A stretch of DNA of 63,958 bases, filler included, from Candidatus Babelota bacterium (GTDB lineage Bacteria > JAGOBX01): assembly GCA_017999075.1 (NCBI GenBank). It is 11 parts of 11 records of this genome, joined end to end, with 100 filler letters (N's around TTAATTAATTAA, not from the genome) between each part and the next. Parts side by side here need not be neighbours in the genome. Positions count along the whole stretch, not along the records: positions 13,489 to 26,851 come from JAGOBX010000045.1; 10 more parts are not named here. One strand, 5' to 3'. The notes beneath the pieces are model-generated. The model was not told where the DNA came from and made no database searches. It was given only the letters and a program-made list of their open reading frames with translations. The translations under genes were made by a program, and so were the position numbers. Position 1 is the first letter of the stretch. Each line of letters opens with the position of its first letter. Shown piece after piece: positions 9,401 through 45,338 of this stretch.

Positions 9401-11583
9401 TTCCTAATTCGCATTTAGAAGTTGCAGGAGATATTAGAACTTCAGATTTGGGAGGACTTTATTTAAGAGGTGGAGTTTCAGACACTAATCACGGACTCGG
9501 ATATTATCACAGTGCAATAAGAGAATGGACAACAGGCTGGGGACCAGACGGACCTGTGCTTCACGGTTATGGCGGCGGCTCTTTAGGAACTAATCAAAGC
9601 GGAACAAAATCTACCGCGCTTGTATGGAATTCTTCAGGACAAGTAGGCATTGGAACCAATTCTCCAAGTTATAAACTTGATGTTTTTAACGGCCCTTCAA
9701 GATTTATAAATCCAAATTTATATATCGGTGAAATAATGCGCTGGCAGGGCTCAAATTCAAGCTCTCAATATCAAATGAATCTTTCTGCTTTTTCGCCTTC
9801 TTCAAATAATGTATCCTATTATTTTTCAATGCAGGACAATGACGGCAGTTATGATACATTTTTAATTTTCAATCGGGGAAATATAGGAGTAAACATAAAA
9901 ACTCCTCTTGATAAATTTCATGTTAACGACAGTTCCGCAATTTCCGGCTGGCGAGGCCGCGCTGTTTTTTCAGGAGCAAACCGCAGTGTTGTTGCTGGAA
10001 TATTCAACGATTCTGCTATTATAGGCGCCCATAATTCTGCTTTAACTGCCTGGGATACTTTATTCATCAATACTCAAGGAAACTTTGCAGGAGGCGGCAA
10101 CGGCAGCGTTATATTGCCCACATATGTAGGAATAGGCACACAAAGCTTAACATATGCTTTGAATTTTGGAACTGATAAAGGTATGCTTTTAAATGCTCTG
10201 ACTTACGGTTTCGCGATTGAACCAGTTACTGCGGCAACAGATTATTTAAATATTAAATCTGTTAATGCAGGAACTTCTTCAACAAACACTGATAATATAT
10301 TAGTCATAACGCGAGCTGGCAAAGTCGGCATCGGAACGACAAATCCTGGCTCAAGTCTTGAAATTTATAATAATTCAAATCCCAAAATATTTCTGAATTA
10401 TAACGGCTCTACTCAATATTTTTTGAGCGGAATATCAAATTCATTGGATTTTGGAAATGTCGGAGGTTCGCCTGCAGCAATAAGATTTATGCCCGGAAAT
10501 GTTACAAAAGTAATAATCGATAATTCCGGCAATGTCGGTATAGGCACAACTTCGCCTTCTGATAGTTTAACAGTTACAGGTGCGGTAGGTGCTGACAATG
10601 GAGAAGGACGCGGTTTTAAACTAAAGAAATCCGACGGCAATTATGCGGCTATTTTAGATATTGATAACAGCAATACAATGCGGTTAAAAGTTCCTGGTCC
10701 AGATTTTTTTATTAATCCTGATACTCCTGCCGCGTTAAATCTAAATTATAATCAGGGGGGGCAGGGTCATATTACAATGGTGGCAGGAAATTCAACAGGC
10801 AATGTCGGTATAGGCACAACAAATCCAGATCGCGCAAAACTTGTAGTAAACGGGTTTGTCAGTTATGATAATGACACTTACGGATATTTGACATCTAATG
10901 CAACAACAGGAATTTCAAGCGGAACAAACAATACATCTATTTATGCCAACGGCAGAATAGTATGTCCTGAATTCAACGCTGTGTCTGATGCGCGCATAAA
11001 AATAGAAATTCCGAAAACTGAAACTAAATCCAATCTTGAAATTATAAATAAATTACGTCCAGTCGATTATAAAATGAAGGATGAAATTCATCACGGCAGT
11101 AAAAATAAAAAAGGATTTTTTGCTCAGGAAGTAGAAAAAATTTTACCTGATGCTGTTTCAAAATCCTCTGATTTTGTGCCTGATATTTTTGCATTATCAA
11201 AATCAATTTCTTATGATAATTATTTAAAAATATTAACTATTACGCTTGATAAACCTCATAATTTACAGGTCGGCGACAAAGTAAAATTAATTTCAGAAAA
11301 AGAATCATTTGAAAAAACTGTAAACACAGTTTTTTCTTTAAATACTTTTTCAGTGGGAGAATGGAATTTGCCCACTGAAAAAGTATTCGTTTACGGCAAA
11401 TATGTAACTGATTTCAGGACGCTCGATTACAATCAAATTTTTACTGCAGGGATCAGCGCCATTCAGGAACTCTCTAAAAAAAATGAATCTTTAAAAAAAC
11501 AGATTGAGCAATTAAAACTAAAGGAAACTTTAATTATTGATTTAATTAAAAGAATAGAAAATTTAGAAAGTAAAATTAAATAA
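6466..11583 (+). CDS. Secreted tail-fibre-like adhesin with 93-aa stalk repeats, GNVGIGT repeats and a C-terminal peptidase S74 intramolecular chaperone
   Basis: Signal peptide followed by the YQGKLTDS...LWTETH...NGLFSVWLG N-domain; many G(N/K)VGIGT..P repeats; SDARIK...LRPVDY...GFFAQEVEKILP.AV S74 motif and a terminal coiled coil. Confidence 0.85.
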   Translation: MKKNILVIFFLLIYAAAGNGYYIAYQGKLTDSDNRRINASVVIIFSIYSEETGTTELWTETHNSVNIVNGLFSVWLGSSNPINLKFDRQYYLGININNQGELTPRIKLNASAFAYRAKYSDTAAFLENNAIAEGAMIINDTLTVNSSFIIEKDGKVGINTLFPSEQLEVLGNAKISGSITAKSYSGDGSNLTNLQYNSLAGDKISRTEISELLNIVGNDTNNLNNRITGLENDSQNKTVILSIYGTRISNLENDSVTKTYVNTQLSTLSSDTQTLKNDLANYKILVYADTINLYNQLSLIRSDSVISIAFSKISGDTVTKSYVDADSQTKTAVLTNYGTRISNLENDSVTKTYVNTQLSNLSSDTQNLKNDLTNYKTLVNADTINLYNQLSLIRSDSVISIAFSKISGDTVTKSYVDADSQTKTAILSNYGTRISNLENDSVTKTYVNTQLSNLSSDTQTLKNDLANYKILVNADTMNLYNQLSLIRSDSVINIAFSKISGDTVTKSYVDADSQIKTTVLTNYGTRISNLENDSVTKTYVNTQLSNLSSDTQTLKNDLANYKILVYADTMNLYNQLSLIRSDSVISIAFSKISGDTVTKSYVDADSQIKTALLSNYGTRISNLENDSVTKTYVNTLLSNLSSDTQTLKNDLANYKILVNADTMNLYNQLSLIRSDSVINIAFSKISGDTVTKTYVDEQLSVKLNKNDSIVISRVSQLFNDSGFISNAGSSITQESADLRYIKKSDTIAADSIGTGAVNSIELSYLDNVSSNIQMQLNSKASNANPGITGGLLVSDTLAVGADTFIVLKNGNVGIGTTNPSARLTINGSNSSELLELSINYNSTTPSLAINNTSGNLASGSRISFKSSGTELANIIYQLGSGSTPSLQFGTNNNERMRITYNGKIGIGTVTPSDSLQVAGSIRGETLTITQRIYADTISAIKFYGDGSNLTGINSSGKFSGNVGDSIYITSTKVGIGTTVPNSHLEVAGDIRTSDLGGLYLRGGVSDTNHGLGYYHSAIREWTTGWGPDGPVLHGYGGGSLGTNQSGTKSTALVWNSSGQVGIGTNSPSYKLDVFNGPSRFINPNLYIGEIMRWQGSNSSSQYQMNLSAFSPSSNNVSYYFSMQDNDGSYDTFLIFNRGNIGVNIKTPLDKFHVNDSSAISGWRGRAVFSGANRSVVAGIFNDSAIIGAHNSALTAWDTLFINTQGNFAGGGNGSVILPTYVGIGTQSLTYALNFGTDKGMLLNALTYGFAIEPVTAATDYLNIKSVNAGTSSTNTDNILVITRAGKVGIGTTNPGSSLEIYNNSNPKIFLNYNGSTQYFLSGISNSLDFGNVGGSPAAIRFMPGNVTKVIIDNSGNVGIGTTSPSDSLTVTGAVGADNGEGRGFKLKKSDGNYAAILDIDNSNTMRLKVPGPDFFINPDTPAALNLNYNQGGQGHITMVAGNSTGNVGIGTTNPDRAKLVVNGFVSYDNDTYGYLTSNATTGISSGTNNTSIYANGRIVCPEFNAVSDARIKIEIPKTETKSNLEIINKLRPVDYKMKDEIHHGSKNKKGFFAQEVEKILPDAVSKSSDFVPDIFALSKSISYDNYLKILTITLDKPHNLQVGDKVKLISEKESFEKTVNTVFSLNTFSVGEWNLPTEKVFVYGKYVTDFRTLDYNQIFTAGISAIQELSKKNESLKKQIEQLKLKETLIIDLIKRIENLESKIK
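7160..8553 (+). repeat. About five near-identical 279-nt (93-aa) in-frame tandem repeats
   Basis: AATCTTGAAAACGA recurs near 7213, 7492, 7771, 8050 and 8329; unit YGTRISNLENDSVTKTYVNTQLS...SKISGDTVTKSYVDADSQ. Confidence 0.95.
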
Positions 11584-12748: not shown

Positions 12749-13363
12749 TTATTTACTGTTCAAAAAATTTATCAATGTTATTCCAGATTTATCCAGTTTT
12801 AATTTTTTGCGGACATTATTCCTATGCCGTTCAACAGTGGTGTGAGATATTTTCAACACTTTTCCAATAGCTTTAGATGACATTCTCTGTTTTATCATAG
12901 AGCAAATTTCGATTTCCGTATTCGTTAAAAATGGTTTTAACTTATCAAGTTTTATTCCTAACGGATCGCTTATTTCAGACAATGTTTTAATAATCAATTC
13001 AACAATTTTTTTGTCATTACCATCTTTAATATTAGCATATATTCTTTCAAGAAGAGGCAATGCAGTATATTCAATATTTTTCATTGCACTGTCAATATAT
13101 TTATTTTTCATTCTTGCAAACTGAGTCATCATTTTTTCAATATATTTATGTTCTATATCATCAAATGTTTCAGATTCCTCTCTCTGACATTTAGTCTTCC
13201 TCTGTTTCTGTTCGTAATTGTAAACATTTCTCAAAAAAATACTTGAACCAGAATCTTCCAAAAGTTCATCAGGTTGAATATACAAATGATTAAAACACAG
13301 AAGATCTTTAATAATAATATATTGGTAATTAAGATAAATTTTTAAAAGACTGTCAAAACTCAA
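12749..13363 (-). CDS. LuxR-type HTH transcriptional regulator (start uncertain, near contig end)
   Basis: C-terminal LTNTEIEICSMIKQRMSSKAIGKVLKISHTTVERHRNNVRKKL. Confidence 0.85.
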   Translation of the reverse strand: MSFDSLLKIYLNYQYIIIKDLLCFNHLYIQPDELLEDSGSSIFLRNVYNYEQKQRKTKCQREESETFDDIEHKYIEKMMTQFARMKNKYIDSAMKNIEYTALPLLERIYANIKDGNDKKIVELIIKTLSEISDPLGIKLDKLKPFLTNTEIEICSMIKQRMSSKAIGKVLKISHTTVERHRNNVRKKLKLDKSGITLINFLNSK

Positions 13364-13488: not shown

Positions 13489-13536
13489 TTCAGGATCATA
13501 AATCCATCCGCAAGCATTGCATACATATTTTTTCAT
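13489..13536 (-). CDS. Rubredoxin, 5' part (cut by contig end); not in the ORF track
   Basis: Minus strand reads MKKYVCNACGWIYDPE after an AGGAGG SD. Confidence 0.88.
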
Positions 13537-13783
13537 AATAACCCTCCTAAAGATTATATATTATTGCAATTATTTAAATAATAAAAATTGTTTAAATAAA
13601 TTTCAATAAAACTTCTAATCTTAAAATGCGATAAACATTTTTTAAACGTGAGAAGTTTTTCGATTTTTATAATATATTTATGCATTAATAATAATTATAA
13701 TGATGTAAAATGCAATAAAAACTTTTTATGATTTTTTATGCTAAGGAAAAATGAAAAATGAATACAGAAAAATGAATATTATA

Positions 13784-13812
13784 TTGACAAATTAAAGTAA
13801 ATTATAGATAAT
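13784..13812 (+). promoter_or_regulatory. Possible sigma70 promoter for the PhnD-kinase-PNPase operon
   Basis: TTGACA, 17-nt spacer, GATAAT; the AT-rich background lowers its significance. Confidence 0.35.
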
Positions 13813-14000
13813 AGAAATGTTACTGAATGGTTATTTGGCCATTTTTTGTAAAAATTATATATTGATAAGCAATAAGTTAATTTTGCAAATAAAGTATATG
13901 ATTATAATATAAATCAGGAAACAGTTCCGAAATTTGTATTAAGGCAATATTATTATTTTTTTGGAGGGGCAGGATGATTTTTATATTTAAAAGGGATTTT

Positions 14001-14915
14001 ATGAAAATAATTTTAATAATACTGATTTTAGTAAATTTGGCTGGATGTTCAACAGAAACTGAAAATTCAATTAATGAACAGTCAGATGTTAAAAAAAATG
14101 AGGGAGTTAATGTACCTTCTGAACAGCAAAATAAAAAACTTAGTATGGCAGTAGTGCCTTCAAGCAATGCTATAGATTTGCAGACTGTATTGAAACCTCT
14201 GGTAAATTATCTTCATACCAAACTTGATTCGGTAGTTATTTTGAAATTTGCAACCAATTATGAACATATAGTTGATAAACTCGGGACAGAATATGATTTT
14301 GCTTTAATGGGCGCATATTCTTATGTGGAATCACATAAAAAAAATCAAACTTTACCGCTTGTGAAATCAATAAGAAATGGAAAAGCATCATATAAAGGAA
14401 TAATAATAACACATAAAGATTCTGGAATTAAATCAATAGCAGATATAAAGAATAAGAAAAAAATAAAAGCAGTTTTTACGGACAGGTATTCCACTTCAGG
14501 ATTTTTGTATCCTGCTGCCGACATAATAAAATCAGGAATAGATATCAACAAAGATTTGGAATTCAAATTCGTAAAAGGACATGATAATGTAGTTAAAATA
14601 ATTTCAGCTAAAGGAGCTGATATAGGAGCCTGCTACCAGGGAGCCGTAGAAAAATATTTAACTAAGGAAAAATCTGCAAATATAGTAATTATAAAAGAAA
14701 CAGACGAAATACCAGGAGATCCTCTTGTAATAGGTAAAAATATAATTGAAAATAAAGAATTAAAAGAAAAGATGCTTGAAGCGTTAGTTAGTTTAAAAGA
14801 ACCGGCAATTCTTAATTCATTGGCTGGCGGCCTGGAAGGATATGCTGTTGCTGCAGATTCGGATTACGACAATTTGCGTGAAAAAATTAATTTAATAAAT
14901 CAATATTTCAAATGA
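14001..14915 (+). CDS. PhnD-family phosphate/phosphite/phosphonate-binding lipoprotein
   Basis: Lipobox LAGC; motifs YKGIIITHKDSGIKS, FTDRYSTSGFLYP, GHDNVV, DSDYD. Confidence 0.85.
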   Translation: MKIILIILILVNLAGCSTETENSINEQSDVKKNEGVNVPSEQQNKKLSMAVVPSSNAIDLQTVLKPLVNYLHTKLDSVVILKFATNYEHIVDKLGTEYDFALMGAYSYVESHKKNQTLPLVKSIRNGKASYKGIIITHKDSGIKSIADIKNKKKIKAVFTDRYSTSGFLYPAADIIKSGIDINKDLEFKFVKGHDNVVKIISAKGADIGACYQGAVEKYLTKEKSANIVIIKETDEIPGDPLVIGKNIIENKELKEKMLEALVSLKEPAILNSLAGGLEGYAVAADSDYDNLREKINLINQYFK

Positions 14916-16999
14916 AAAAATATTTTATCTGGTTCCAAAAAAAAAATCGCGAGATAAGCGGTTCATTTTTATTTTTGTCATTATTTTTAACTGTAATACT
15001 TCTTTATATAATATTAAGTTTTTTTACAAGTTTATCATCACATTTTTTTTATTTATTTTTAATAATTGCTTTATTATTTTTTATTATAGATCCTTTTTTA
15101 AAATCAATTCTTCCGTCGGCTAAGGCAAATCTTCTTTTATTGGAAATATATGTTTTTTTCATACATTTTACAGTAGCGTATTCCGGAGATAACAGCACGG
15201 CATTTTTCTTTTTGTATTTTATTCCTATTATATCAGGAGCTATGAGTTTCGGCATACGCGGGAGCGTGGCTACAACTCTGTTTATTTTTTTGCTGTATAA
15301 TTTAAGTCCGGATCCTATAACCCGGAATATAATGTTATTCGGTCCTCAGGTTCAAGTGCATCTCCCTAAATTCATTGCATTGCTGATAATAGCGATAATG
15401 CTTGGATTTTCAAGTGAGGAAAACAGAAAAGCTGAACAGCGGGCTTATGAAAGAATGTCAAAAATTGTTACGTTAAATGAAATTAAAAACAGTTTAAAAC
15501 TTGATTATGAACTCGGTTCAATATTAAAAGTTACGACAAATTCAATACTTAAAATAATGAACTGCAATGCGGCTTTGGGAATATTGTATGATAATATGAC
15601 TGGAGAAATTCTGGAAAAATACGAGCAGGATTTTGATTTGAACAGTCTTAATAAGGCGGTAATACGAGCCACTCAGGATTCGGAATTGTTTGGACCAAAA
15701 GACAAAATTATATCCTCGCCTGATTCAAAAAAAATAAGGAATATACTTAAAATAAACCTTCACATAGACAATGAACAGTATTTGATTATATATTTGTCTA
15801 AGATGTACGAAAAAAATACGTTTAATGTCAGCGATATTGAACTTTTAAAAACGATAAAGGTATATCTTGAACTTTTATTTAAAAACAGAACTTTATATAA
15901 AAGAATAGAAAGTATAAAAGATTATCTGTATTTTACTTTTAAAAATCTGCCTCTTGGAATAATGATTTTAGATAATGATTTGAAAATTAAGTTTATTAAC
16001 ACTCAGGCGCTGCTGCTTTTAAAATATGATAATGAAAAAGATTTGACTGACAGGATTCTCGGAGAAGACATATACATATTTCCTGATAAAAAAATTCAAT
16101 CAAAGATTGAAAATGAAGAATATATGTTTTTTCATAGAACTCAGCTTGTAGCTAAAAATCTTGAAGTTAAACAAATCGAATTGACTACAGTAAAATTAAA
16201 AACTGAATACGGATTAATTAAAGGAATGATAGTTTCTTTTAATGATATAACTGAAATGAAACAAATGGAAGAAGAACTTAACAGACGCGACAGGTTATCA
16301 TCGTTAGGAGAAATGGCTGCGGGTCTTGCTCATGAAATAAGGAATCCGCTTGGTTCTATAGAAGGTTTTGCGTCGCTTCTTGTAAAAGATTATGCTGATT
16401 CTGCTGACAATGAAAAAAGCAGGATAGCTTCTAAAATAGTAGAAGGAGTTAATGATTTAAATAAGATTGTAACTGAATTTTTGAATTTTACAAATAAAAT
16501 TCAATTGAAAAAACAAAATAAAAATATTATTGAGACTATTGAAAAATCGTTGCTTTACGCCAGAAAATCTATTGACGAAAATAAAATAAAAGTTGAAAAA
16601 CAGTATTGCGCTCAGAAGATAATAGTTAATTACGACGAAGATAAAATAAGCCGTGTTTTATTAAACGTGATATTGAATGCGGTTGACGCATTATCTGACA
16701 TTAGTGAACCGCTAATCAGCATCAGCGTAAGGATAAAAGAAAATAATATGGCATCAATGGAGTCTACTCTATGCTGCATAGATTTTTTTAATAATGGAGG
16801 GAATATTGATGAAAATGTAAAAAGTAAAATATTCAATCCTTTTTTTACCACAAAATCAAATGGAATAGGATTGGGATTGACTATTTCACAGAAAATAATA
16901 GAAGAACATAACGGCAGAATAAATTTTAAAAATGAGAGGAATGGAGTAAAATTTACTATAGAATTACCTGTTGATAAAAGGTTTGTTTATAAATCCTGA
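14912..16999 (+). CDS. Membrane sensor histidine kinase (multi-TM, GAF-like, PAS, HisKA, HATPase)
   Basis: SLGEMAAGLAHEIRNPL H-box; NVILNAVDA N-box; IFNPFFTTKSNGIGLGL G-box; ATGA overlap with the upstream gene. Confidence 0.93.
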   Translation: MKKYFIWFQKKNREISGSFLFLSLFLTVILLYIILSFFTSLSSHFFYLFLIIALLFFIIDPFLKSILPSAKANLLLLEIYVFFIHFTVAYSGDNSTAFFFLYFIPIISGAMSFGIRGSVATTLFIFLLYNLSPDPITRNIMLFGPQVQVHLPKFIALLIIAIMLGFSSEENRKAEQRAYERMSKIVTLNEIKNSLKLDYELGSILKVTTNSILKIMNCNAALGILYDNMTGEILEKYEQDFDLNSLNKAVIRATQDSELFGPKDKIISSPDSKKIRNILKINLHIDNEQYLIIYLSKMYEKNTFNVSDIELLKTIKVYLELLFKNRTLYKRIESIKDYLYFTFKNLPLGIMILDNDLKIKFINTQALLLLKYDNEKDLTDRILGEDIYIFPDKKIQSKIENEEYMFFHRTQLVAKNLEVKQIELTTVKLKTEYGLIKGMIVSFNDITEMKQMEEELNRRDRLSSLGEMAAGLAHEIRNPLGSIEGFASLLVKDYADSADNEKSRIASKIVEGVNDLNKIVTEFLNFTNKIQLKKQNKNIIETIEKSLLYARKSIDENKIKVEKQYCAQKIIVNYDEDKISRVLLNVILNAVDALSDISEPLISISVRIKENNMASMESTLCCIDFFNNGGNIDENVKSKIFNPFFTTKSNGIGLGLTISQKIIEEHNGRINFKNERNGVKFTIELPVDKRFVYKS

Positions 17000-17012
17000 T
17001 AATAGAATAAAG

Positions 17013-18770
17013 ATGAAATGCATAAGACAATTTAACAATACAATATTGTTTAACAATGATCTGGAAATAGAAATAATTGACAATATATCTTCATGTCTCG
17101 GAATAAGGCTGAAATCTAAAAATACAGTGATATTAGGTTTTTTAAATGCAGGAGATTTAAAAACTGTAAGAGAACCGAAACTGATAATAAAATATATTGA
17201 GCGCTATTCTGCTTCGGGCCAATTACCTGGAGCTGCGAACCTTGAAGAAAATGTTTATTCACAAAAAAATTCTATTATAGAAAAACATATTACGCGTCAA
17301 ATTTCGCCGCTGTTAAAAAAAAATAATTTTGATGTGGAAATTAATATTCTGCTTGAATCTGCAGACTATAAGTTTCCTTCTGATGCATTATCAATGAATT
17401 GCGCGATGATATTATGCTATATATCAGGGCTGTTGGAAATTCCTTATTATGCAGGCAGGTTCTGCGTTATAGATTCGCATACAAAAATTGAGCCTGAATT
17501 TAAGGATATCAAAAATTCCAAGTTTACGGCAATATTCGGGACAACTCAAAATAAAATAATTTTTCTTGAAGTTAACGGAATAGAATTTTCAGAATTTGAA
17601 ATTGAAAATGTATTAAGAAAGATTGAAAAAGATATAACTGCATTTTTTGAGATATTAAATGATTTGAAAAAAAATGTTTCTGTAAAATTAGGAGTTGAAC
17701 GATTTACATCAAATGAAAAAAATGATTCAATAAAAAATCAAATAGAAAAAATTGTTACTGAAAACAGAGAACTGCTTGAAGGGATCTATGTTTATGATAC
17801 ATATAAAATGAGAATATCAGAACTTACTAAATTATCTTCTATATTGTTAAAAAATGTTGAATTGACTGTGGATTTGAATAATGATGTATATACGGACGTA
17901 AAAAAGTTTTATTATGATTGTTTTCTAAAAATGATTGTAAAAATAGTTAAAGAAAAATTGACCCAAAAAAAGCGGTTATATAATGATTATATGAATAAAT
18001 TGACCGGAATAGACGTGGAAATAATAAAAAATAGAAATACTGCTGTTTGCCGAATAAACCGTGAAATAACAGATACAGTAGTTTCTGTAACATCATTGAT
18101 AACCGAAAAACGCATATTTAAAGAAAATGATAGAACAGAAAATATACCTAATGTAAAATTGGAAAAATTCATAAAAAAAACTGATGATGTTGATTCCAAA
18201 AAAGAGAACAAATTTTATAATATCTCCAATTTTTTTGGTAATAACATAAATGTTATGCTTGGCGACAGAATTTTGCCTGATGAATTTAAACCTTTAAGAT
18301 CGCTGCAAATAGAAACTGTTTTAAACAAGGTTGTTAATTATAAAAATTTATTTTCGCAGGAAAACGTTTACAGGATGGTGACAGAATATATTTCAAGCGA
18401 CGGATGTGAAATAAGTTCTCCTGTAAATGCTGTGAATATTTTAAAATATTATCATCCGGTAAATTTTTTTAAAGATATTTTTTTTGGAGATATTGTTTGC
18501 CTTGAATTTGCTTATCTGATAGAAGAAAATTATTTAATTTTGGAACCTGTATTTCTTGAAGAAACAGCTGCTGATTTACGAATATGCATAGCAGGAGATT
18601 CTAATAATATTAAATTTATGAATTTAGTAACTAATACGTCAGGTATAGAAATATCAAAACTCACAAAAATAATAAAAGAATGTAAGACTATTTTGAAAAA
18701 TTATTTGCGAACGGTAGTTTCAAATATGAATAAAAATAAAAACAATTTATGTTACAGCATAAGGTTTTAA
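17013..18770 (+). CDS. Highly degenerate PNPase-like protein A (two RNase PH domains, no KH or S1)
   Basis: KYIERYSASGQLPG ~ NYQERTYAAGRIPG; RQISPLL ~ RPIRPLF; YRMVTEYISSDG ~ VRVVSEITESNG; LEPVFLEETAADLRICIAG ~ [20 protein letters not shown]. Confidence 0.72.
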   Translation: MKCIRQFNNTILFNNDLEIEIIDNISSCLGIRLKSKNTVILGFLNAGDLKTVREPKLIIKYIERYSASGQLPGAANLEENVYSQKNSIIEKHITRQISPLLKKNNFDVEINILLESADYKFPSDALSMNCAMILCYISGLLEIPYYAGRFCVIDSHTKIEPEFKDIKNSKFTAIFGTTQNKIIFLEVNGIEFSEFEIENVLRKIEKDITAFFEILNDLKKNVSVKLGVERFTSNEKNDSIKNQIEKIVTENRELLEGIYVYDTYKMRISELTKLSSILLKNVELTVDLNNDVYTDVKKFYYDCFLKMIVKIVKEKLTQKKRLYNDYMNKLTGIDVEIIKNRNTAVCRINREITDTVVSVTSLITEKRIFKENDRTENIPNVKLEKFIKKTDDVDSKKENKFYNISNFFGNNINVMLGDRILPDEFKPLRSLQIETVLNKVVNYKNLFSQENVYRMVTEYISSDGCEISSPVNAVNILKYYHPVNFFKDIFFGDIVCLEFAYLIEENYLILEPVFLEETAADLRICIAGDSNNIKFMNLVTNTSGIEISKLTKIIKECKTILKNYLRTVVSNMNKNKNNLCYSIRF

Positions 18771-18776
18771 TTTGAT

Positions 18777-21011
18777 ATGAAAAAAGAAAAATCAAAATAC
18801 TATTCAATAATATTCGATAACAAACCGTTAAAAGTAAGGCTGATTGATTATAACGGAACTTCAGATTACACGATAGAACTGTCATTTGGCAATACAATAG
18901 TAAACTGCAACCTTGTAATCGGTAATAAACTAAAAAAAACAGGAGAACACAGTTCTCCAATAAAATTATTTTATTCTGAACGTTTTTATTCTTTCGGAGC
19001 CATTCCCACAAATTTTCATAAGAGGGAAGATTCCAAGACTCCGCGAGAGATTCAATTGACAGATTTTTTTACCGAATGCGCTATAACATCTTTGAATAAG
19101 ATTATAGATACCGAAATAATAATATCGCTGCTACTTGTTTCATTTGAAGAAGGCTGTTCTCCGGAATTGCCTGCTTCAGTGGGATTATCTATGCTGATTT
19201 CATTCGTATCATATTTCAATTCAAATAATTTTGCAGCATTGAGACTGGCTGAAATTGAAGGAAGATATATAAAAAATCCTGATATTGACATAGCTCAATA
19301 CAGTAATCTTGACTTGCTTATTGCGTGTTCTGAAACTTTGATTATTAATATGATATGTTCTGTCAAAGAATCCTCAACCACTTATATTATTGGAGCTGCA
19401 GGATATATAAAATCAGCAATAGAACCCTTGATAGATTTTCAAAAAAAAATAATAGAAGATTGGAAAAATCTGCCTGATATTACGGTCCCATTATCGAAAA
19501 TAGAATATATAGATTTAGATTCTGATATAATAAAAAGTTTTAATGAAACCAATAAAAATGAGATAAATATTCTTATTAGTTCGTTTGATAAGCCTGAAAT
19601 AAATATTTTGGAAATATTAAATATGATGAATGAAATGGTTTCTACAGGAGTCGAGAATGGAAATATTTCGAATTATGCTTTGAAAAAATATCTTTATGAG
19701 TTAATTGGAGAAAATATAAAAAGGAATTTACTTGAAAAGCATATAAGACTTGATTCGCGTCAATTTAACGAATTCAGGGAAATAGAATGTACATCAGGCA
19801 TATTACCTTCAGTTCATGGTTCGGGTATATTTAAATTTGGAAAAACTTCTGTAATGTCAGTAGTAACTTTAGGAACCATTAATAAATCAAGATGGCTATT
19901 TGGAATAGAAGGGTATAAAAGGCAGACATTAACTAATAGTATTTATGTATATCCGTTCAGTACAGGGAAGATAGATGCGAACATAAAATATAACAAATTT
20001 GAAGATACACTTAATATATATCTTGATTCAGTATTAAAAAATGTTATGCCCGGATTGTCGGAACTTCCTTATTTGAAACGAATAATATATGAAATGATTT
20101 CAACTGACGGCGGAACTATATCCGCTGCAATAAATAGTTCAAATCTTGCTTTTAAAGATGCAGGGATAAAGATAAAATCAGAATTTGCGAGCGTTGACAG
20201 TTCATTGTTTTTTTCTGATAAACTGAATGATTTTTTTGTTTTAACTGATTCATTAATGATTGAAAGAGTATGTTCAGACGCTGAAATTAATGTTGCTGGA
20301 ACATTGAACGGTTTGATAGGAATAATGTTCAAATCAAGAAAAAAAGGAGTAACGCTTCATCAGCTTGAAAAAATTTTACATCATCAAAATGAAGTATTGT
20401 CATATATTATATCGAAGATAAAAGAAACTGTCCCGGAATGCAAACCGCAATTGAATTCAAGAGTTCCTGAAACCCGTATATTGCAGGTTAATCCGGATAA
20501 AATCGGATTAATTGCAGGAAGAAATTTTTGTAATGTAAATGAAATAAAAAAAAATACGAATTGCGACATAACAATTGAAGACGACGGAATTATAGTTATA
20601 AGTACAAAAAATAAATTCAGCAATATTGAAGCGGCGCGTCTTAAAATAATTGAAATTTCAGGGCAGATTGAATGGCGCAATTCTGATAAAACAGAAAATA
20701 AATTTAGAAATATGTTTTCAAAATTTAAAAAAGAATCAAAATATCAAGAACCATCAAGGCAAATTGATTATAAAGTTGGAGATATAGTTAATGCAACTGT
20801 AATAAAACTTGTTCCTTTCGGAATATTCGTTGAAGCAGAATTCGGAGCTAAAGGACCTGTATATTTGTCAGAACTTGGAACAGGTTTTTGCACAAAACCA
20901 GAAGAACTGGTTAAAATAGGCGATTTGATAAAAGTGGTCATAACTGAAATAGACGGTTTTAATTACAAATTCAGTCAAAAAAAATATCTTGAGAGACCCG
21001 CGAGCAAATGA
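18777..21011 (+). CDS. Degenerate full-architecture PNPase-like protein B (PH1-helical-PH2-KH-S1)
   Basis: YSERFYSFGAIPTNFHKRE; RLDSRQFNEFREI...GILPSVHGSGIF...VTLG; DAGIKIK; KH region NPDKIG...ITIEDDG; S1 region VGDIVNATVIKLVPFGIFVE; catalytic motifs altered. Confidence 0.88.
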   Translation: MKKEKSKYYSIIFDNKPLKVRLIDYNGTSDYTIELSFGNTIVNCNLVIGNKLKKTGEHSSPIKLFYSERFYSFGAIPTNFHKREDSKTPREIQLTDFFTECAITSLNKIIDTEIIISLLLVSFEEGCSPELPASVGLSMLISFVSYFNSNNFAALRLAEIEGRYIKNPDIDIAQYSNLDLLIACSETLIINMICSVKESSTTYIIGAAGYIKSAIEPLIDFQKKIIEDWKNLPDITVPLSKIEYIDLDSDIIKSFNETNKNEINILISSFDKPEINILEILNMMNEMVSTGVENGNISNYALKKYLYELIGENIKRNLLEKHIRLDSRQFNEFREIECTSGILPSVHGSGIFKFGKTSVMSVVTLGTINKSRWLFGIEGYKRQTLTNSIYVYPFSTGKIDANIKYNKFEDTLNIYLDSVLKNVMPGLSELPYLKRIIYEMISTDGGTISAAINSSNLAFKDAGIKIKSEFASVDSSLFFSDKLNDFFVLTDSLMIERVCSDAEINVAGTLNGLIGIMFKSRKKGVTLHQLEKILHHQNEVLSYIISKIKETVPECKPQLNSRVPETRILQVNPDKIGLIAGRNFCNVNEIKKNTNCDITIEDDGIIVISTKNKFSNIEAARLKIIEISGQIEWRNSDKTENKFRNMFSKFKKESKYQEPSRQIDYKVGDIVNATVIKLVPFGIFVEAEFGAKGPVYLSELGTGFCTKPEELVKIGDLIKVVITEIDGFNYKFSQKKYLERPASK

Positions 21012-22792
21012 AAATAAAATATTTCAGCATAAAATTTATAATAAATTTTTCTTTTATATTTGTATATACTTTATCTCTGATAATAACTTCAGGCTACATA
21101 ATAGTTCAAATAAACAAGAACGCTGAGACATATAAAAATATGTTAATTACCAAGGATTTGAGTATTCTGGCTAATTACTCATCGGAGGTTCTCGATACAT
21201 ACGATAAAACTGGAATTTTAGATGATAATCTGATAGATGAATTATCAATGAATATAAAAACCATGTTTAAAAATGATAATTATATTCATCATATAATATT
21301 ATATAACGAAAGTTTTCATGAAATATTAAAAATCAATAATACTGGATCAAGCTCAGTAAAAGAACCTCCTATATTAAAACCTGATATTTTAAGAAATATG
21401 TCTGTTTACGGAAAAATAATTAACCATAAAGGACTTACAATAAAAGCAATAAATGTTAAATCAAAACAAGGTTCAAAAAACAGGATAACCGGATATATTC
21501 AAACAGGCTTTTCAAACCGGTATTTTAGCCGGATAGTATTGTCAAGTGTATTATTTACAGTGCTGCTTGCATTGATACTAATAACAATTTCATTATTTAT
21601 AATTTCTGCATCTGTAAATTTTGTAATCAATCCTGTGCAGAAACTTATAGGAGTGGCGGAAAAAATAGCGAACGGGGATTCTTCGCCTGAAATAATAACA
21701 ATGAAAGTTAATAATGAAGTTGGAGTTCTTGTTGACGCATTTAATTTAATGACTAAAAATCTGCAGGAAAGAATTAAAGATTTACAGACAATACAGATAC
21801 TTGGAATGGAAATAAGTTCGGAACTTAATAAAAAAGATTTGCTTAAAAATATAATAAAAATTTATACTACTAATACGAACTGTCAAAAATGCGCGCTGCT
21901 TTTAGCAAGCGAAGACAAACATTCGCTGGAACTTACTTCAGGATATAATCTTACAACAACAAAATTTAATGTTAAATTTGGAGAAGGAGTAGCAGGAACA
22001 GTAGCAGTGTCGTGTAATTATAAAATAGTTGATAATATTACGGAATATCCTGAATATTTATTGTTTTATAATTCGAATGAATTGAATAAAATTGAGAACA
22101 AACAGATGCTTGCTTTGCCGCTTGTTGTAAAGGACAGGTTGACAGGAGTAATATGCCTTACAGGAAAAGAAGGAGATTCAAAATATTCATCTTCGGAAAT
22201 AGTTCTTTATCAAACTCTTGCATCGTCAGCGGCTATAGCCATAGAAAATTCTAATCTGTATGAGCTTGCAATAACCGATGGATTGACGAAACTTTATATA
22301 CACAGATATTTCCAGCAAAAATTATTTGAAGAAATGGAATATCATAAAAACAACAACAAAAATATGGCGTTGATAATGCTTGACATAGATCATTTTAAAA
22401 GTTTTAACGACACATACGGACATCAGCAGGGGGATATAGTATTACAGCATTTAGCCAAGATAATGCTTCATTCTACCAGAATAATAGATTTTCGTCTTAG
22501 CGATAGAAGATCGGATATAGTTGCAAGATACGGAGGAGAAGAGTTTTCCGTTATATTGCCGATAACAGATATTAATGGAGCTATTGCAGTAGCGGAAAGA
22601 ATAAGATTTAATGTTCAGGAATACGAATTTCCCGGGCAGGATAAACCTTTAAGAGTAACAGTAAGTTTAGGAATAGCTGAATACAAAAAAGGATTGAATC
22701 CGGCGCAATTGATAAAAAATGCGGATATAGCATTATACCAGTCAAAAGAAAAAGGAAGAAACAGGGTTAGCGTATTTGAAGAAAAAAAGTAA
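21008..22792 (+). CDS. Membrane diguanylate cyclase (periplasmic sensor-HAMP-GAF-GGDEF)
   Basis: AITDGLTKLY, DIDHFKSFNDTYGHQQGD, RRSDIVARYGGEEF (intact active site and RxxD I-site); ATGA overlap with PNPase-like B. Confidence 0.94.
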   Translation: MKIKYFSIKFIINFSFIFVYTLSLIITSGYIIVQINKNAETYKNMLITKDLSILANYSSEVLDTYDKTGILDDNLIDELSMNIKTMFKNDNYIHHIILYNESFHEILKINNTGSSSVKEPPILKPDILRNMSVYGKIINHKGLTIKAINVKSKQGSKNRITGYIQTGFSNRYFSRIVLSSVLFTVLLALILITISLFIISASVNFVINPVQKLIGVAEKIANGDSSPEIITMKVNNEVGVLVDAFNLMTKNLQERIKDLQTIQILGMEISSELNKKDLLKNIIKIYTTNTNCQKCALLLASEDKHSLELTSGYNLTTTKFNVKFGEGVAGTVAVSCNYKIVDNITEYPEYLLFYNSNELNKIENKQMLALPLVVKDRLTGVICLTGKEGDSKYSSSEIVLYQTLASSAAIAIENSNLYELAITDGLTKLYIHRYFQQKLFEEMEYHKNNNKNMALIMLDIDHFKSFNDTYGHQQGDIVLQHLAKIMLHSTRIIDFRLSDRRSDIVARYGGEEFSVILPITDINGAIAVAERIRFNVQEYEFPGQDKPLRVTVSLGIAEYKKGLNPAQLIKNADIALYQSKEKGRNRVSVFEEKK

Positions 22793-22793
22793 T

Positions 22794-23471
22794 ATGGATT
22801 TAAAAAAAAAATTGTCTGAATGCAGATTATACGGGTTTACGCCGGACAAATATTTGAACGGCAGAAATCTTCTTGAAATAGTTGAAATGCAATTAAGTTC
22901 CGGAGTTGACATTATTCAGCTTCGTGAAAAAAAAATGAGCGACAGGGAAAAATTCAAACTGGCTATTGAAATAAAAAAAATATCAGAAAAATATAATAAA
23001 ATATTTATTGTTAACGATGATATAACAATAGCCCAATTATCAGACGCCGATGGAGTTCATCTTGGCCAGGACGACATAGAAGTAAAATACTGTAGGAAAA
23101 TATTAGGAGAAAAAAAAATTATAGGATTATCAACTCATAATGAAAATCAATATTCTGAAGGTCAGTTGAGTTGTGCTGATTATACGGCAATAGGTCCGGT
23201 TTTTCAAACATTTACAAAAGACAATCCGGCGCCTGTTGTAACTTTGAATAAACTTCCGGAAATATTAAAAACCAAAAAAAAGTTTACTGTGGCGATAGGC
23301 GGTATAAATCAAGGAAATATAGACTGTTTATCAAAATTTTCAATTGATTGTTTCGCTGTAGTTTCGGATATTGTTTGTTGTGACGATATAAAAAGTTCTG
23401 TTAAAAGATTAAAAAAAATTATAGACAGAATTAAGGAAAAAAATAAAAGTTTAAATATAAAATTAAGGTGA
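22794..23471 (+). CDS. thiE: Thiamine-phosphate synthase
   Basis: IQLREK, FIVNDD, DGVHLGQDD, IIGLSTH, GPVFQTFTK, VAIGGIN. Confidence 0.93.
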   Translation: MDLKKKLSECRLYGFTPDKYLNGRNLLEIVEMQLSSGVDIIQLREKKMSDREKFKLAIEIKKISEKYNKIFIVNDDITIAQLSDADGVHLGQDDIEVKYCRKILGEKKIIGLSTHNENQYSEGQLSCADYTAIGPVFQTFTKDNPAPVVTLNKLPEILKTKKKFTVAIGGINQGNIDCLSKFSIDCFAVVSDIVCCDDIKSSVKRLKKIIDRIKEKNKSLNIKLR

Positions 23472-23475
23472 AATA

Positions 23476-23943
23476 ATGAAAATAACTCCTATTGAAATTG
23501 AAAAAATTGAATTTAAAAATTCTATGTTTTTTGGATATGATAAAAATCAGGTAAGGAGTTTTTTAAATGAAATATCTTCAGACATTTCAGAAATTATAAA
23601 AGAAAATTCAATTTTAAAAGAAAAAGTAATTGAATTGCAGAAAGTTCAGCAGGATTATCAGAATATGGAAAAAAAACTTCAGGATACCTTGATGATTATT
23701 CAGGAATTTAAAAAAAATGTACAGGATTCTGCAAGGAAAGACGCGGAACAGTTTATAAATGAAACAAAACTTCAATGTAATATTATGATAAATGAAGCTG
23801 AAAAAAAAGTAGGTGAACTGAAAAAAGAATACAATACTTTGATGCTTGAAAAAGGGAAAATTATTTCGAAATTAAAGTTTATGCTTCAGGAAGAATTAAA
23901 TGTGATTGAATCATTTGAAAATTCTAATAAAGAATCTATATGA
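23476..23943 (+). CDS. divIVA: DivIVA-domain protein
   Basis: MKITPIEIEKIEF...GYDKNQVRSFL followed by a coiled coil. Confidence 0.88.
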   Translation: MKITPIEIEKIEFKNSMFFGYDKNQVRSFLNEISSDISEIIKENSILKEKVIELQKVQQDYQNMEKKLQDTLMIIQEFKKNVQDSARKDAEQFINETKLQCNIMINEAEKKVGELKKEYNTLMLEKGKIISKLKFMLQEELNVIESFENSNKESI

Positions 23944-23977
23944 AGAACAAAAGGTAATTTTATTAATTAAAAAAAAT

Positions 23978-24277
23978 ATGGAAAAAAACAGCAGCAGCGT
24001 TAATATGAAAATAAAAGTCAAGGCTAATGCAGGGAAAAATGAAATTATAGGCTTTATGGATCAAGATACTTTAAAAATAAAAATTAAGGCTCCGGCAGTA
24101 GATAATAAGGCAAATAAAGAACTTATAAGTTTTTTATCGAAAACAATGAATTTATCAAAAAACAATATTGAGATAATAAGCGGTTTTGGAAATCCGTTGA
24201 AACTACTTCGTTTAACAGGCATAACAAGGTTGGGGGCAGATTCCATAATTCAGGAAAAAATAAGTTTGAAAAAATAA
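23978..24277 (+). CDS. DUF167 (YggU/UPF0235) family protein
   Basis: IKVKANA...LKIKIKAPAVDNKANKELISFLSK...IISG...K. Confidence 0.88.
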   Translation: MEKNSSSVNMKIKVKANAGKNEIIGFMDQDTLKIKIKAPAVDNKANKELISFLSKTMNLSKNNIEIISGFGNPLKLLRLTGITRLGADSIIQEKISLKK

Positions 24278-24278
24278 T

Positions 24279-25832
24279 ATGAAAAATAAACATCTGCAGA
24301 TAAATTTTAAATTTAAATATCAAATGATGCTGGTATTTTTCATAATTGGAGTAGGAACAATTATTTTATCTCAGGGAATACTTCAAAAAGTTGTGGAAAT
24401 AAGACTTATTAACCTTGCAATATCCGATATAAAGCAATATGTAATTCCTAATTTTAAAGATTTAATAACTTTATCAGTAAAACTTGATGATGATATAATT
24501 TTAGCTAACAGCGCAAGAAAAGTGAATTATTATAACAATATAAATTCATTCAGAATTACAGATGATAACGACAGGATACTTGTAAGCAATTTTTCTGAAG
24601 AAATCAATCAGATTTATAAGTATAACCTGACATTCTTTAAACAAGATAAAATACTGTTTGCTGATGAATCGCAATCAGAAGTTAATAAGTTATTTTTGAA
24701 AAATAACACTGATTCAATAGAAATTTATTATCTGTTTTCTTTTATGCATAAACAAGAACAGATTAAAAGAAAAATATTTTTGACTATATCTAAAAATTTT
24801 GTTAATAAAGTTAATGAAGATTTAAAACGTAGATTTTTATTGATAGGCTGCGGGATAAGTATACTGAGTGTATTGTTTGGTTTTTTATTCAGTGAGAAAG
24901 TAAGCAGAAAAATAGAAATTATTAAATCGGCGGCCCAAGTTATAGGTTCGGGAAATTTTATGCATAGAATAACCATTAAGGCTGCTTTGAAAGACGAACT
25001 TGTAGATTTATCAGCAGACATAAATAAAATGGCGTCAAGTCTGAAAGAAGCAGAATCAATGAAACTTGAAAATGAGAGATTTGAGCAGGAACTTAGAATA
25101 GCAGAACAGATACAGCAGACTTTGCTTCCTGTTTCAACACCGAAAACGGATAACTTTGAGTTTGGAAGCATATATTATTCTGCAAAAGAAGTTGGCGGAG
25201 ATTATTTTGATTGGATAACTGTTGATGATAATCATCTTGGAATAGTTTGTGCAGACGTGTCAGGCAAGGGAGTTCCCGGGGCTTTTGTAATGGCTATTAC
25301 GAGAAGTGTTCTTCGTTCATACGCAGTGAATATTTTATCTCCTGGAGAACTGCTTAAAAAAGTGAATGCTCTTTTGAAAAAAGATATGAAAAAAGGAATG
25401 TTTGTAACTATGTGGTATGGTATTCTTGATATAAATACAGGACAAATAAAATTTGCTAATGCAGGGCATAATCCAGTGATAATTTATAGGAATAATAAAA
25501 AAGATATAGAGATTATGGAAACTCAGGGATCTCCGCTGGGTATTTTGAATGAAAATATTTTTAATAAAAAATTGGTTGAAACCGAAATTGTTTTGTCTGA
25601 AGGAGATATTTTAATACAATATACAGATGGAGTTACTGAAGCATTTAATTCCAATAAAGAAATGTTTGAGTTTGAAAGGTTATATGAAGTTATAAGAAAT
25701 TCTGGGAGTAACATTTCTGCTCAGCAAATGATAGATAACATTAATGAAAATGTTAAAAAGTTTGTGAATGAGTATGAGCAGTCAGATGATATTTTAATGG
25801 TATCAATTAAAAAAAAAACAAAACAGGGATAA
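24279..25832 (+). CDS. HAMP plus SpoIIE/RsbU-type PP2C phosphatase
   Basis: ELRIAEQIQQTLLP, VGGDYFD, ADVSGKGVPGA, NAGHNP, YTDGVTEA, QSDD. Confidence 0.93.
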   Translation: MKNKHLQINFKFKYQMMLVFFIIGVGTIILSQGILQKVVEIRLINLAISDIKQYVIPNFKDLITLSVKLDDDIILANSARKVNYYNNINSFRITDDNDRILVSNFSEEINQIYKYNLTFFKQDKILFADESQSEVNKLFLKNNTDSIEIYYLFSFMHKQEQIKRKIFLTISKNFVNKVNEDLKRRFLLIGCGISILSVLFGFLFSEKVSRKIEIIKSAAQVIGSGNFMHRITIKAALKDELVDLSADINKMASSLKEAESMKLENERFEQELRIAEQIQQTLLPVSTPKTDNFEFGSIYYSAKEVGGDYFDWITVDDNHLGIVCADVSGKGVPGAFVMAITRSVLRSYAVNILSPGELLKKVNALLKKDMKKGMFVTMWYGILDINTGQIKFANAGHNPVIIYRNNKKDIEIMETQGSPLGILNENIFNKKLVETEIVLSEGDILIQYTDGVTEAFNSNKEMFEFERLYEVIRNSGSNISAQQMIDNINENVKKFVNEYEQSDDILMVSIKKKTKQG

Positions 25833-25836
25833 AATT

Positions 25837-26851
25837 TTGAAGTTTACAAGATTAAATAATACAATTTTAAACAAAGGTTTTTTTAGGTTTATTGCACCTG
25901 GTTCTAAAAGTGTGACCAACAGGGCATTGATAATGCTTGGATTAAATGAAAATAAGGCGGCATTAGAAAATATTCTTATTGCAGAAGATACGCTTGTGAT
26001 GATTAATGCGCTGTATGATTTAGGCGCTGAATTAATATTTGATTGTAAGGTCAATATTTTGACTAAAACTGGAATATGCCAACCACGTAACAGAAATGTA
26101 TATTTGGGATATGCTGGCACCGCATACAGATTTTTATTGCCTTATTTATTGACTATGCGTGGTAAATTTAAAATGTATGGAGAAGAAGAACTGCATAAAA
26201 GACCTATAACTGAGCTTATAAGTTGTATGAAAAATTTAGTTGACGGAATGGTATATGAGGATACTGGAAATCGAAGTATTTATTGTGAGATAAATAAATT
26301 AAAAAATATTTCATCAGTTTCTGTTGATCCTGTAAAAAGCAGTCAGTTTTTAACTGCATTACTTTTGGTTATTCCTGTTATATATGATAAATTCACAATA
26401 GAATGCACCAACAAACCTGTATCATCAACATACATAGATTTAACTATGGATATGCTTAAGAAAACCGGAATAAATATCGAACAGGAAAATTATTCGGCAT
26501 ACAAAATTTTCGGAAAACAAAAATATAATTTTTTAAAATATAATATAGAAGGAGATTATTCTGCCGCATCTTATTTTTTTGCTTTATCTGCAATAAGCGG
26601 AATCAGGTCTGAAATTCTTAATCTTGACTGCTTAAGTAAACAGGGTGATAAAAAGTTTATTGAAATACTCGAACGTATGGGTTGCGTGGTAAACTATAAA
26701 AATTCTTGTAATTCTATAGAAATTTTACCTCCTGAAAAATTGCGTTCTGCCGGAGAAATAGATATGTCGAAAATGCAGGATGTAGTGCCTACAGCAGCTG
26801 TTGCCGCTGTGTTTGCAGAAGGAGAAACTAAAATAGTAAATATAGAAAATT
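25837..26851 (+). CDS. aroA: EPSP synthase, 3'-truncated by contig end
   Basis: PGSKSVTNRAL, GYAGTAYRFL, RPI, SSQFLTALLL, EGDYSAASYF, QGD. Confidence 0.92.
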
Positions 26852-45139: not shown

Positions 45140-45186
45140 GTGAACCGCCTGAGAGTCGAACCCAGAACCTACGGATTAAGAGTCCG
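45140..45186 (-). mobile_element. 3' half of tRNA-Lys(CTT), an att core; not a complete tRNA
   Basis: Minus strand CGGA-CTCTTAA-TCCG anticodon arm, CTGGG-TTCGACT-CTCAG T arm and 3' acceptor strand; no D arm or 5' acceptor; flanked by IHF-like TATCAATAACTTA (45212) and TTTGGTAC repeats. Confidence 0.8.
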
Positions 45187-45338
45187 TTGATTTTAGAACT
45201 ATCGGATTTATTATCAATAACTTATCTCGAAAAATGCTTTTGGTACTTCTTTGGTACAATCGATATTAACGCTCCATATATATATATTTATTTTAACCGG
45301 TATATTTAAGGGAAATAATTCTACCCGGATAGAGAATC

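Follow-up and report, generated by a model that had tools for sequence, protein, structure and literature searches.

What remains for a polynucleotide phosphorylase (PNPase) to do when its catalytic motifs are gone, and why would a bacterium keep two such proteins side by side? PNPase is viewed as a homotrimeric enzyme, highly conserved and present in a single copy. The question is raised by a locus of Candidatus Babelota bacterium (JAGOBX01; GenBank assembly GCA_017999075.1), found in a 63,958-nucleotide stretch of DNA in which 11 parts from 11 records of this genome are joined end to end with filler. We call the whole stretch the window and count all positions along it; positions 13,489 to 26,851 come from record JAGOBX010000045.1. 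Two adjacent genes of this record, called here A and B, are concerned:

17013-18770, + strand: gene A, 585 amino acids (aa) from its ATG, a PNPase-derived protein reduced to the core (first RNase PH-type domain PH1, long helical domain, second RNase PH-type domain PH2)
18777-21011, + strand: gene B, 744 aa, a PNPase paralogue of full architecture (PH1, all-alpha domain, PH2, KH, S1)

The two genes are separated by 6 nt in the window. An in-frame TTG at 16971, upstream of ATG 17013, offers an alternative start for A; we prefer the ATG because the orthologue in a relative, genome G001, begins at the equivalent ATG right after the stop codon of the preceding kinase gene. The explanation that we favour, with no better than even confidence, is that A and B are ancient, fast-evolving and selected non-phosphorolytic PNPase paralogues, encoded in one operon and forming an RNA-binding ring tied to signalling. 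It is carried by homology and fold, loss of the catalytic motifs, purifying selection, a conserved operon and the canonical pnp gene of relatives; loss of activity, RNA binding, co-assembly of A with B, and control by a ligand or a link to cyclic di-GMP (c-di-GMP) are inferred.

Loss of the catalytic motifs in a PNPase fold

The phosphate- and metal-site motifs were followed in a 38-row alignment and, for B, also in the HMMER alignment to its closest solved relative, the PNPase 5yjj (E 1e-65). They are replaced in all four B orthologues and in all four full-length A orthologues, in the following way:

Canonical RREIGHG: [KR]FE[DE]xxN in B; deleted in A
Canonical ESNGSSS: ST[DE]G[GS]T[IL] in B; S[ST]DG[CS]E[IV] in A, and STNNLII in the A of a second relative, genome G002
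Canonical EDxLGDMDFK: E[RK]xC[SA]DA[EL][IL]N in B; EE[TAH][AS]AD[LA]R[IF]C in A, not alignable in the A of G002

In the window itself, RREIGHG of B has become KFEDTLN, SNGSSS has become TDGGTI and EDxLGDMDFK has become ERVCSDAEIN, while A carries SDGCEI and EETAADLRIC and has the RREIGHG stretch deleted. In what we take to be the E. coli numbering, the metal-site changes of B are D486>R, D492>E or L, and K494>N. The replacement motifs of B are themselves conserved (FED..NI.LD, ST[DE]G.T.S and E[RK].C.DA..N) among orthologues down to 44% identity. In this altered active-site region E409, D417, E496, C499 and D501 are invariant; E503, in the metal site, is variable and is L in two of the four orthologues.

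As a control, we looked at the other PNPase-like matches returned by the B search. RRxxGH and NGS[ST]S are intact in 39 out of 39, and ED..G.MD[FL]K is intact in all 38 that cover the region, a set that includes very divergent sequences from the Candidate Phyla Radiation and from Firmicutes (22-27% identity). Only three proteins among the matches of that search, all of the B family, are without the catalytic motifs. Because motifs replaced in A and B are kept in 39/39 divergent PNPases, the sequences strongly predict that A and B lack phosphorolytic activity.

The derivation of B from PNPase is unmistakable, though its form is aberrant. Pfam places RNase_PH at 332-464 (1.6e-18), KH_1 at 568-625 and S1 at 665-726, and the NCBIfam PNPase equivalog models TIGR03591 and NF008805 match the protein over its whole length with 295.9 and 294.8 bits (TIGR03591 E 6.5e-88), below their curated cut-offs of 525.05 and 471 bits. 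The PNPase domain order PH1, all-alpha, PH2, KH, S1 is thus present in B, and all five domains are formed in its AlphaFold2 (AF2) model, made from a 33-row alignment (pLDDT 84.8, pTM 0.86). PH2 also gives a weak match to the archaeal Rrp41 model TIGR02065 (6.1e-9). S1 is the best-conserved part of the protein, with a mean pairwise identity of 74% and 46 of 75 positions invariant; the corresponding identities are 50-53% in PH1, PH2 and KH, 25% in the helical domain and 16% in the KH-S1 linker. The neck loop, of FFRR type in PNPase, reads F[HY]KRE in all four orthologues (FHKRE in the window). The GxxG loop of KH is degenerate, GPGGK having become GRNF in the window and G[RKQ]N[FS] across orthologues. 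Since S1, KH and the F-[HY]-K-R-E neck loop remain, B would bind single-stranded RNA without degrading it.

For gene A, Pfam gives no match, either to the window protein or to its three full-length orthologues (0/4). TIGR03591 and NF008805 recognise A over residues 57-335 with 62.6 and 67.2 bits (E 1e-17 to 1e-18), below the PNPase cut-off (62.6 versus 525.05 bits). PH1 is the part nearest to canonical PNPase (hhalign 99.5%, E 2.4e-22). In profile-profile comparison by hhalign, residues 20-574 of A are collinear with residues 18-553 of B (95.6%, E 1e-8); the C-terminal half of A alone still finds the correct part of B, its PH2 (86.6%, E 4.5e-6), and matches the collinear part of canonical PNPase weakly (26.6%, E 7e-4). 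The AF2 model of A (pLDDT 83.4, pTM 0.86) displays PH1, a long helical domain and PH2, and its best Foldseek matches in the PDB are all PNPase cores (E 4e-33, TM 0.75-0.82); the input alignment included PNPases, which may bias this model. Independently of that alignment, the ESM Atlas single-sequence model of the exact A sequence (pTM 0.76) aligns with PNPase models along residues 7-576 (TM 0.78). Neither KH nor S1 is found in A by profile comparison, motif alignment or the AF2 model, and the protein departs in this from the five-domain order. Its neck-loop site carries acidic residues of NLEEN type, not an FFRR-type loop. Two RNase PH-type domains are therefore recognisable in both proteins, by profile and structure in A and by Pfam in B.

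An earlier, sequence-only reading of this DNA had drawn attention to two adjacent genes 6 nt apart, and the open reading frames (ORFs) at 17013-18770 and 18777-21011 bear this out. The motif changes that it quoted for B, the GRNF loop, and the kept FHKRE and S1 are all present in the 5yjj and 38-row alignments, and SDGCEI, EETAADLRIC and the missing KH and S1 of A are confirmed by the 38-row alignment and hhalign. It had also supposed an RNase PH fold in A, which hhalign, AF2 with Foldseek and the Atlas model agree in describing as a PNPase core with two PH domains. The Pfam check that it proposed for both proteins came out well for B, where RNase_PH, KH_1 and S1 all matched, and returned nothing for A.

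Selection, rarity and other PNPases of the lineage

A and B are under purifying selection and are not decaying. We used the proportions of nonsynonymous and synonymous differences (pN and pS), dN/dS not being estimable because dS is saturated (undefined or >1.8). Between the window and G001, pN and pS are 0.236 and 0.761 for A, and 0.171 and 0.716 for B. For the three other genes of the conserved block described below they are 0.206 and 0.760 (substrate-binding lipoprotein), 0.133 and 0.727 (diguanylate cyclase), and 0.102 and 0.751 (histidine kinase), and the pN values of A and B are comparable to these. A evolves faster, with 60% identity to its G001 orthologue versus 72% for B, and 30% versus 44% to those of G002. 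The reading frames of the block are intact in all three genomes (window, G001 and G002), and in the AT-rich DNA of the window they run over 585 codons in A and 744 in B.

Only about five lineages have it, which makes the family very rare. When the B profile was run against 40 relatives of G001, B-type matches appeared in G001 (1466 bits) and G002 (797 bits) only, each of the other 38 having one match to the PNPase core (160-245 bits). Three species-level genomes make up the GTDB phylum of G001, so the lineage of the window is very sparsely sampled; B is present in two of the three. The third, G003, yielded no B, no orthologue of the block's kinase (best match 114 bits) and none of the further paralogue C described below, its completeness not being given and these absences thus unproven. 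A word-based search of 5.8 billion proteins retrieved two close relatives of B (71% and 47%) and two partial relatives of A. In an exhaustive search of 1.84 billion representatives with the A profile, there were 196 matches at E<=1e-3 and 5 at E<=1e-30; those at E<=1e-30 comprise one further full-length A (P0048, 596 aa) and three fragments, and the remaining matches are PNPases aligning to PH1 of A. Scanning metagenomes with the B profile brought up no contig beyond that of G001, the genome-contig scan gave one locus, and the member listings of clusters P0004 (B-type) and P0048 (A-type) showed no contig linking the two.

The DNA of the window locus is present in wastewater, activated-sludge and digester metagenomes from four studies. 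One independent study covers 28 of the 30 bins of the locus, with 0-1 differences per listed piece, and 9 of its 11 pieces of the locus are at least 99% alike. The metagenome contigs over the locus, from four runs, are short: not one covers the stretch entirely, and among those listed none bridges the A-B junction. No RNA run is listed as containing the locus, which is uninformative. The pair belongs to an uncultured bacterium from wastewater.

A quick maximum-likelihood tree of 45 core sequences, for which the tool warns of long-branch joins, recovers A (four sequences), B (four) and C (two) each as monophyletic, with SH-aLRT support of 99-100 and very long stems. The canonical PNPases of the lineage fall among ordinary PNPases. 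One canonical PNPase at 91% identity bears the NCBI label 'Candidatus Dependentiae', which we did not accept as a taxonomic assignment. The A and B trees are congruent, window and G001 grouping together with the others outside; with such long branches, the tree does not settle whether A and B are sisters, nor the age of the duplication.

In G001 the canonical pnp (990.3 bits, all motifs intact) lies directly after ribF-rpsO on a contig other than that of A and B, which reach 51.6 and 270.4 bits, respectively, with the same model. G002 likewise contains a canonical-type pnp with intact motifs. A and B do not adjoin rpsO and are placed between a histidine kinase and a GGDEF gene. The sequence-only reading had suggested looking for a separate canonical pnp beside rpsO; it is found there in G001, and a canonical copy also exists in G002, the gene neighbourhood having been inspected in G001. 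B is accordingly not the sole PNPase of either genome, these being the two searchable relatives with the pair. The same reading had argued from intact frames against decay, an argument now reinforced by pN far below saturated pS and by the conserved lineage motifs and S1, and the synteny and selection that it wished to see in relatives are found in G001 and G002, where the pair occurs in the same gene order and is subject to purifying selection.

Both searchable genomes with A and B (2/2) also encode a further paralogue, C. This is a complete ORF of 535-545 aa in which RRExGHG, [SN][DG]GSSS and EDHxGDMDFK are intact, and KH and S1 are absent. It is followed in both by the gene of a conserved putative membrane protein of 116-118 aa, with a hydrophobic N-terminus and no Pfam match:

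G001, locus L003, 1471-3078, + strand: paralogue C
G001, locus L003, 3075-3431, + strand: the gene next to C
G002, locus L021, 2746-4383, - strand: paralogue C
G002, locus L021, 2387-2737, - strand: the gene next to C

PNPase-family clusters of 502-570 aa without KH or S1 are also found in other phyla in the ESM Atlas.

Compared with PNPase itself (TIGR03591; structures 5yjj, 3cdi and 4am3), B shares the five-domain order and the FFRR-type neck, A shares the PH1-helical-PH2 core, and both model as PNPase folds. They differ from it in scoring far below the cut-off, in having the phosphate- and metal-site residues replaced or deleted, in lacking an rpsO neighbour and in coexisting with a canonical pnp; A differs further in having neither KH nor S1. 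By its score, its catalytic residues and its context the pair therefore falls outside the PNPase equivalog, and it belongs within the PNPase/RNase PH fold.

The five-gene block and its surroundings

A and B are the third and fourth genes of a block whose order is the same in all three genomes holding the pair, with gaps of 0-21 nt or overlaps of 4 nt. The three others are, in the window:

13974-14915, + strand: first gene of the block, PhnD-type periplasmic substrate-binding lipoprotein (SBP); Pfam Phosphonate-bd 9.9e-50, lipobox-like LAGC in the translation
14912-16999, + strand: multi-pass membrane histidine kinase (HK); Pfam HisKA 6.5e-13, HATPase_c 1.4e-16
21008-22792, + strand: last gene of the block, membrane HAMP-GAF-GGDEF diguanylate cyclase (DGC); Pfam GGDEF 8.2e-45, GAF and HAMP

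The SBP stop overlaps the kinase start by 4 nt, and the DGC start overlaps the B stop, also by 4 nt. At the same position, HK is 82% identical in G001 and 60% identical in G002; the A of G002 is shorter, at 496 aa, and has lost part of its helical domain. The cyclase has an intact GGEEF and an RxxD I-site five residues upstream of it (RRSD-IVARY-GGEEF). We consider the conserved unit to be these five genes, because the sequence after the cyclase differs in G002. This operon context of SBP, HK and DGC, together with the active core-only paralogue C, is what the present analysis adds to the sequence-only reading.

The best sigma-70-like site of the region is located at 13784-13812, upstream of SBP (11 of 12 matches, a consensus match only), and no convincing terminator-like site was found on the + strand within the block, again by consensus matches only. 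Against Rfam, the 750 bases before the first gene of the block gave no match at E<=1, and at gathering thresholds the window shows no riboswitch. There is no receiver domain in the five genes, PADLOC found no defence-system match among the five proteins, and neither Pfam nor NCBIfam detected a c-di-GMP-binding domain (PilZ, degenerate GGDEF/EAL, MshEN and others) in A or B.

Downstream of the cyclase, 22776-25832 (+ strand) contains thiE, a DivIVA-domain gene, yggU (DUF167) and a SpoIIE/PP2C phosphatase gene. The cyclase of G001 is followed by ORFs that agree in size and order, in a comparison of sizes and not of families, but that of G002 is not; as the order is not kept there, this stretch probably lies outside the functional block. 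Divergently upstream of the block, 12749-13363 (- strand) encodes a 204-aa protein with a C-terminal LuxR/GerE helix-turn-helix, whose N-terminal part has no receiver-domain match at E<=1e-5 and whose position is not conserved in G001. Other parts of the window carry large ORFs on the + strand: one of 1401 aa with fn3 repeats and a right-handed beta-helix (2096-6301), one of 1705 aa ending in Peptidase_S74, the endosialidase chaperone domain known from phage tail fibres and from certain surface proteins (6466-11583), and one of 1704 aa with a CarboxypepD_reg match only (30065-35179). AAA_14/DUF4143 ATPase genes at 43391-44608 (+ strand) and 47363-48589 (- strand) flank a low-GC stretch, within which 45141-45208 (- strand) gives a borderline Rfam tRNA match (29 bits, equal to the gathering score) that ARAGORN does not call.

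A candidate RNA-binding ring and its alternatives

To look at a possible association, the full core of A (1-573) was modelled with PH2 of B (310-556), each with its own alignment. The interface score ipSAE was 0.70, 0.70 and 0.67, versus a best of 0.00 in three controls; contacts agree between runs to 92% or more, with a partner pLDDT of 78 or more. Of 80 solved complexes 58 attain the ipSAE mark used, as do 2 of 110 mismatched pairs; with our own alignments as input, these counts apply here only roughly. On the side of A, the modelled interface involves 22-47, 58-77 and 107-119, all in PH1 and including the conserved ERxSAxG and LLES; on the side of B, it involves 342-366, 386-400 and 433-444, including the HGS and STDG loops. 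Since A was modelled together with its own PH2, PH2 of B presumably sits on the free inter-subunit face of PH1 of A.

We suppose that SBP, HK, A, B and DGC would be expressed from one operon. B would grip single-stranded RNA via S1, KH and the neck loop, phosphorolysis being absent, and A would be its partner in the ring, devoid of RNA-binding appendages and contacting PH2 of B through its PH1. Together they would build an asymmetric, non-catalytic particle resembling an exosome core, able to hold or sequester RNAs, to protect them or to hand them over. Such a particle might act as an output or cofactor of the kinase/cyclase signalling unit, plausibly via c-di-GMP, with the conserved, remodelled PH2 pocket of B as a possible ligand site. 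c-di-GMP is reported to act on E. coli PNPase, and DosC/DosP to associate with it (PMC11543664, which cites Tuckerman et al. 2011).

Several points weigh against this explanation. The passing A-B model may reflect likeness to PNPase homotrimers, since such trimers are solved, and not a specific preference of A for B; homomers A3 and B3, and mixtures with canonical PNPase or C, stay compatible with it. Translational coupling suggests A and B synthesis at about 1:1, a poor fit to a three-chain ring. The degenerate GxxG loop of KH suggests that part of the RNA-binding apparatus of B may be impaired, and the conservation of its altered site could mean a new ligand or chemistry instead of a dead site. 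The operon link to the kinase and cyclase is guilt by association, with neither a receiver nor a known c-di-GMP motif, and a canonical pnp in the window's own organism is assumed from the relatives.

Some of these points feed alternative explanations. The unsuited equimolar coupling, the much faster evolution of A and its loss of part of the helical domain in G002 would all be understandable if A and B formed separate homotrimers, or A stood alone, with independent functions and adjacent only through tandem duplication; the solved bacterial PNPases among our structure matches are, besides, all single-gene products. We regard this as unlikely, although it deserves to be kept in view: a ring of A only would have no evident activity, because it has no RNA-binding element and an acidic neck; the A-B adjacency, with a gap of 4-21 nt, is kept in 3/3 genomes across saturated divergence; and the interface model passes its controls, which is weak evidence. 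Alternatively, A and/or B could be dominant-negative or regulatory subunits of trimers of the housekeeping PNPase or of C, tuning RNA decay to the signal of the operon. The coexistence of canonical pnp and C with the pair in both searchable genomes fits with this, as does PH1 of A, the most canonical-like part, which also makes the modelled interface; yet A and B are on very long branches from the pnp of the lineage, so that interfaces may be incompatible, and we find this proposal rather improbable.

A further explanation, to which we give little credence, has the PH2 pocket of B, and perhaps that of A, repurposed as a nucleotide or second-messenger site or for new catalysis, the pair being then a sensor or an enzyme. 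The replaced motifs conserved down to 44% overall identity with their invariant acidic and Cys residues, the translational coupling of B to a cyclase with intact GGEEF and I-site, and the reports that c-di-GMP acts on E. coli PNPase (PMC11543664) would agree with it. On the other hand, Pfam, NCBIfam and PADLOC give only PNPase domains and no known ligand motif, and E503 of the metal site is not conserved. That the pair is a functionless, decaying remnant of a duplicated pnp is hardly credible. Extreme divergence and the want of a Pfam match in four A orthologues out of four might suggest it, but it is already contradicted by the intact frames in three genomes, by pN and pS, and by the conserved motifs and S1, and both proteins give confident models. 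A bolder reading, which we offer as a long shot, would be an exosome-like division of labour rebuilt from PNPase in this candidate phylum, in which B provides the S1/KH cap and the neck that grips RNA, the unlinked C the only phosphorolytic site, and A a structural or regulatory third subunit, c-di-GMP from the coupled cyclase switching ring composition or RNA entry; RNA decay would then be directly gated by a signal.

The eukaryotic exosome provides known examples of RNase PH rings that are inactive and have diversified subunits: its Exo9 core, in yeast and human, is an inactive ring assembled from distinct RNase PH subunits under an S1/KH cap. That the eukaryotic Exo9 core lost phosphorolytic activity is described in PMC5735172. 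The likeness with A and B is one of concept: PH-type subunits kept RNA-binding or channel elements, lost phosphorolysis and diversified, the heteromer being conjectural in our case. Unlike Exo9, the A and B chains carry two fused PH domains, only B has cap domains fused to it, no hydrolytic nuclease is known to associate with them, and their origin is independent, bacterial and within PNPase. The archaeal exosome (Rrp41/Rrp42 with an Rrp4/Csl4 cap) similarly shares labour between PH subunits with and without active sites; it differs by its active ring, its single-domain subunits and its cap proteins from separate genes. Two E. coli cases come near: PNPase with DosC/DosP, a PNPase-type particle reportedly linked with a diguanylate cyclase, and the PNPase-Hfq small RNA carrier (PDB 7ogm), in which PNPase holds RNA without degrading it. 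E. coli PNPase is, in contrast, a housekeeping active enzyme whose cyclase is encoded elsewhere, whereas A and B are a dedicated, predicted-inactive pair coupled to a cyclase. In the portions of the literature covered by our search, which had subscription journals outside it, we found neither inactive PNPase paralogues of bacteria nor an operon of this kind described.

If the explanation that we favour is true, two differently stripped, selected and non-catalytic PNPase paralogues beside an active one would represent an independent and simpler case of the path followed by the exosome, and the pair would be a tractable two-gene system for learning what a dead PH ring does. The pair keeps its position between a sensor kinase and a diguanylate cyclase, and this suggests that second messengers may act directly on RNA fate, a route so far only hinted at for E. 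coli PNPase.

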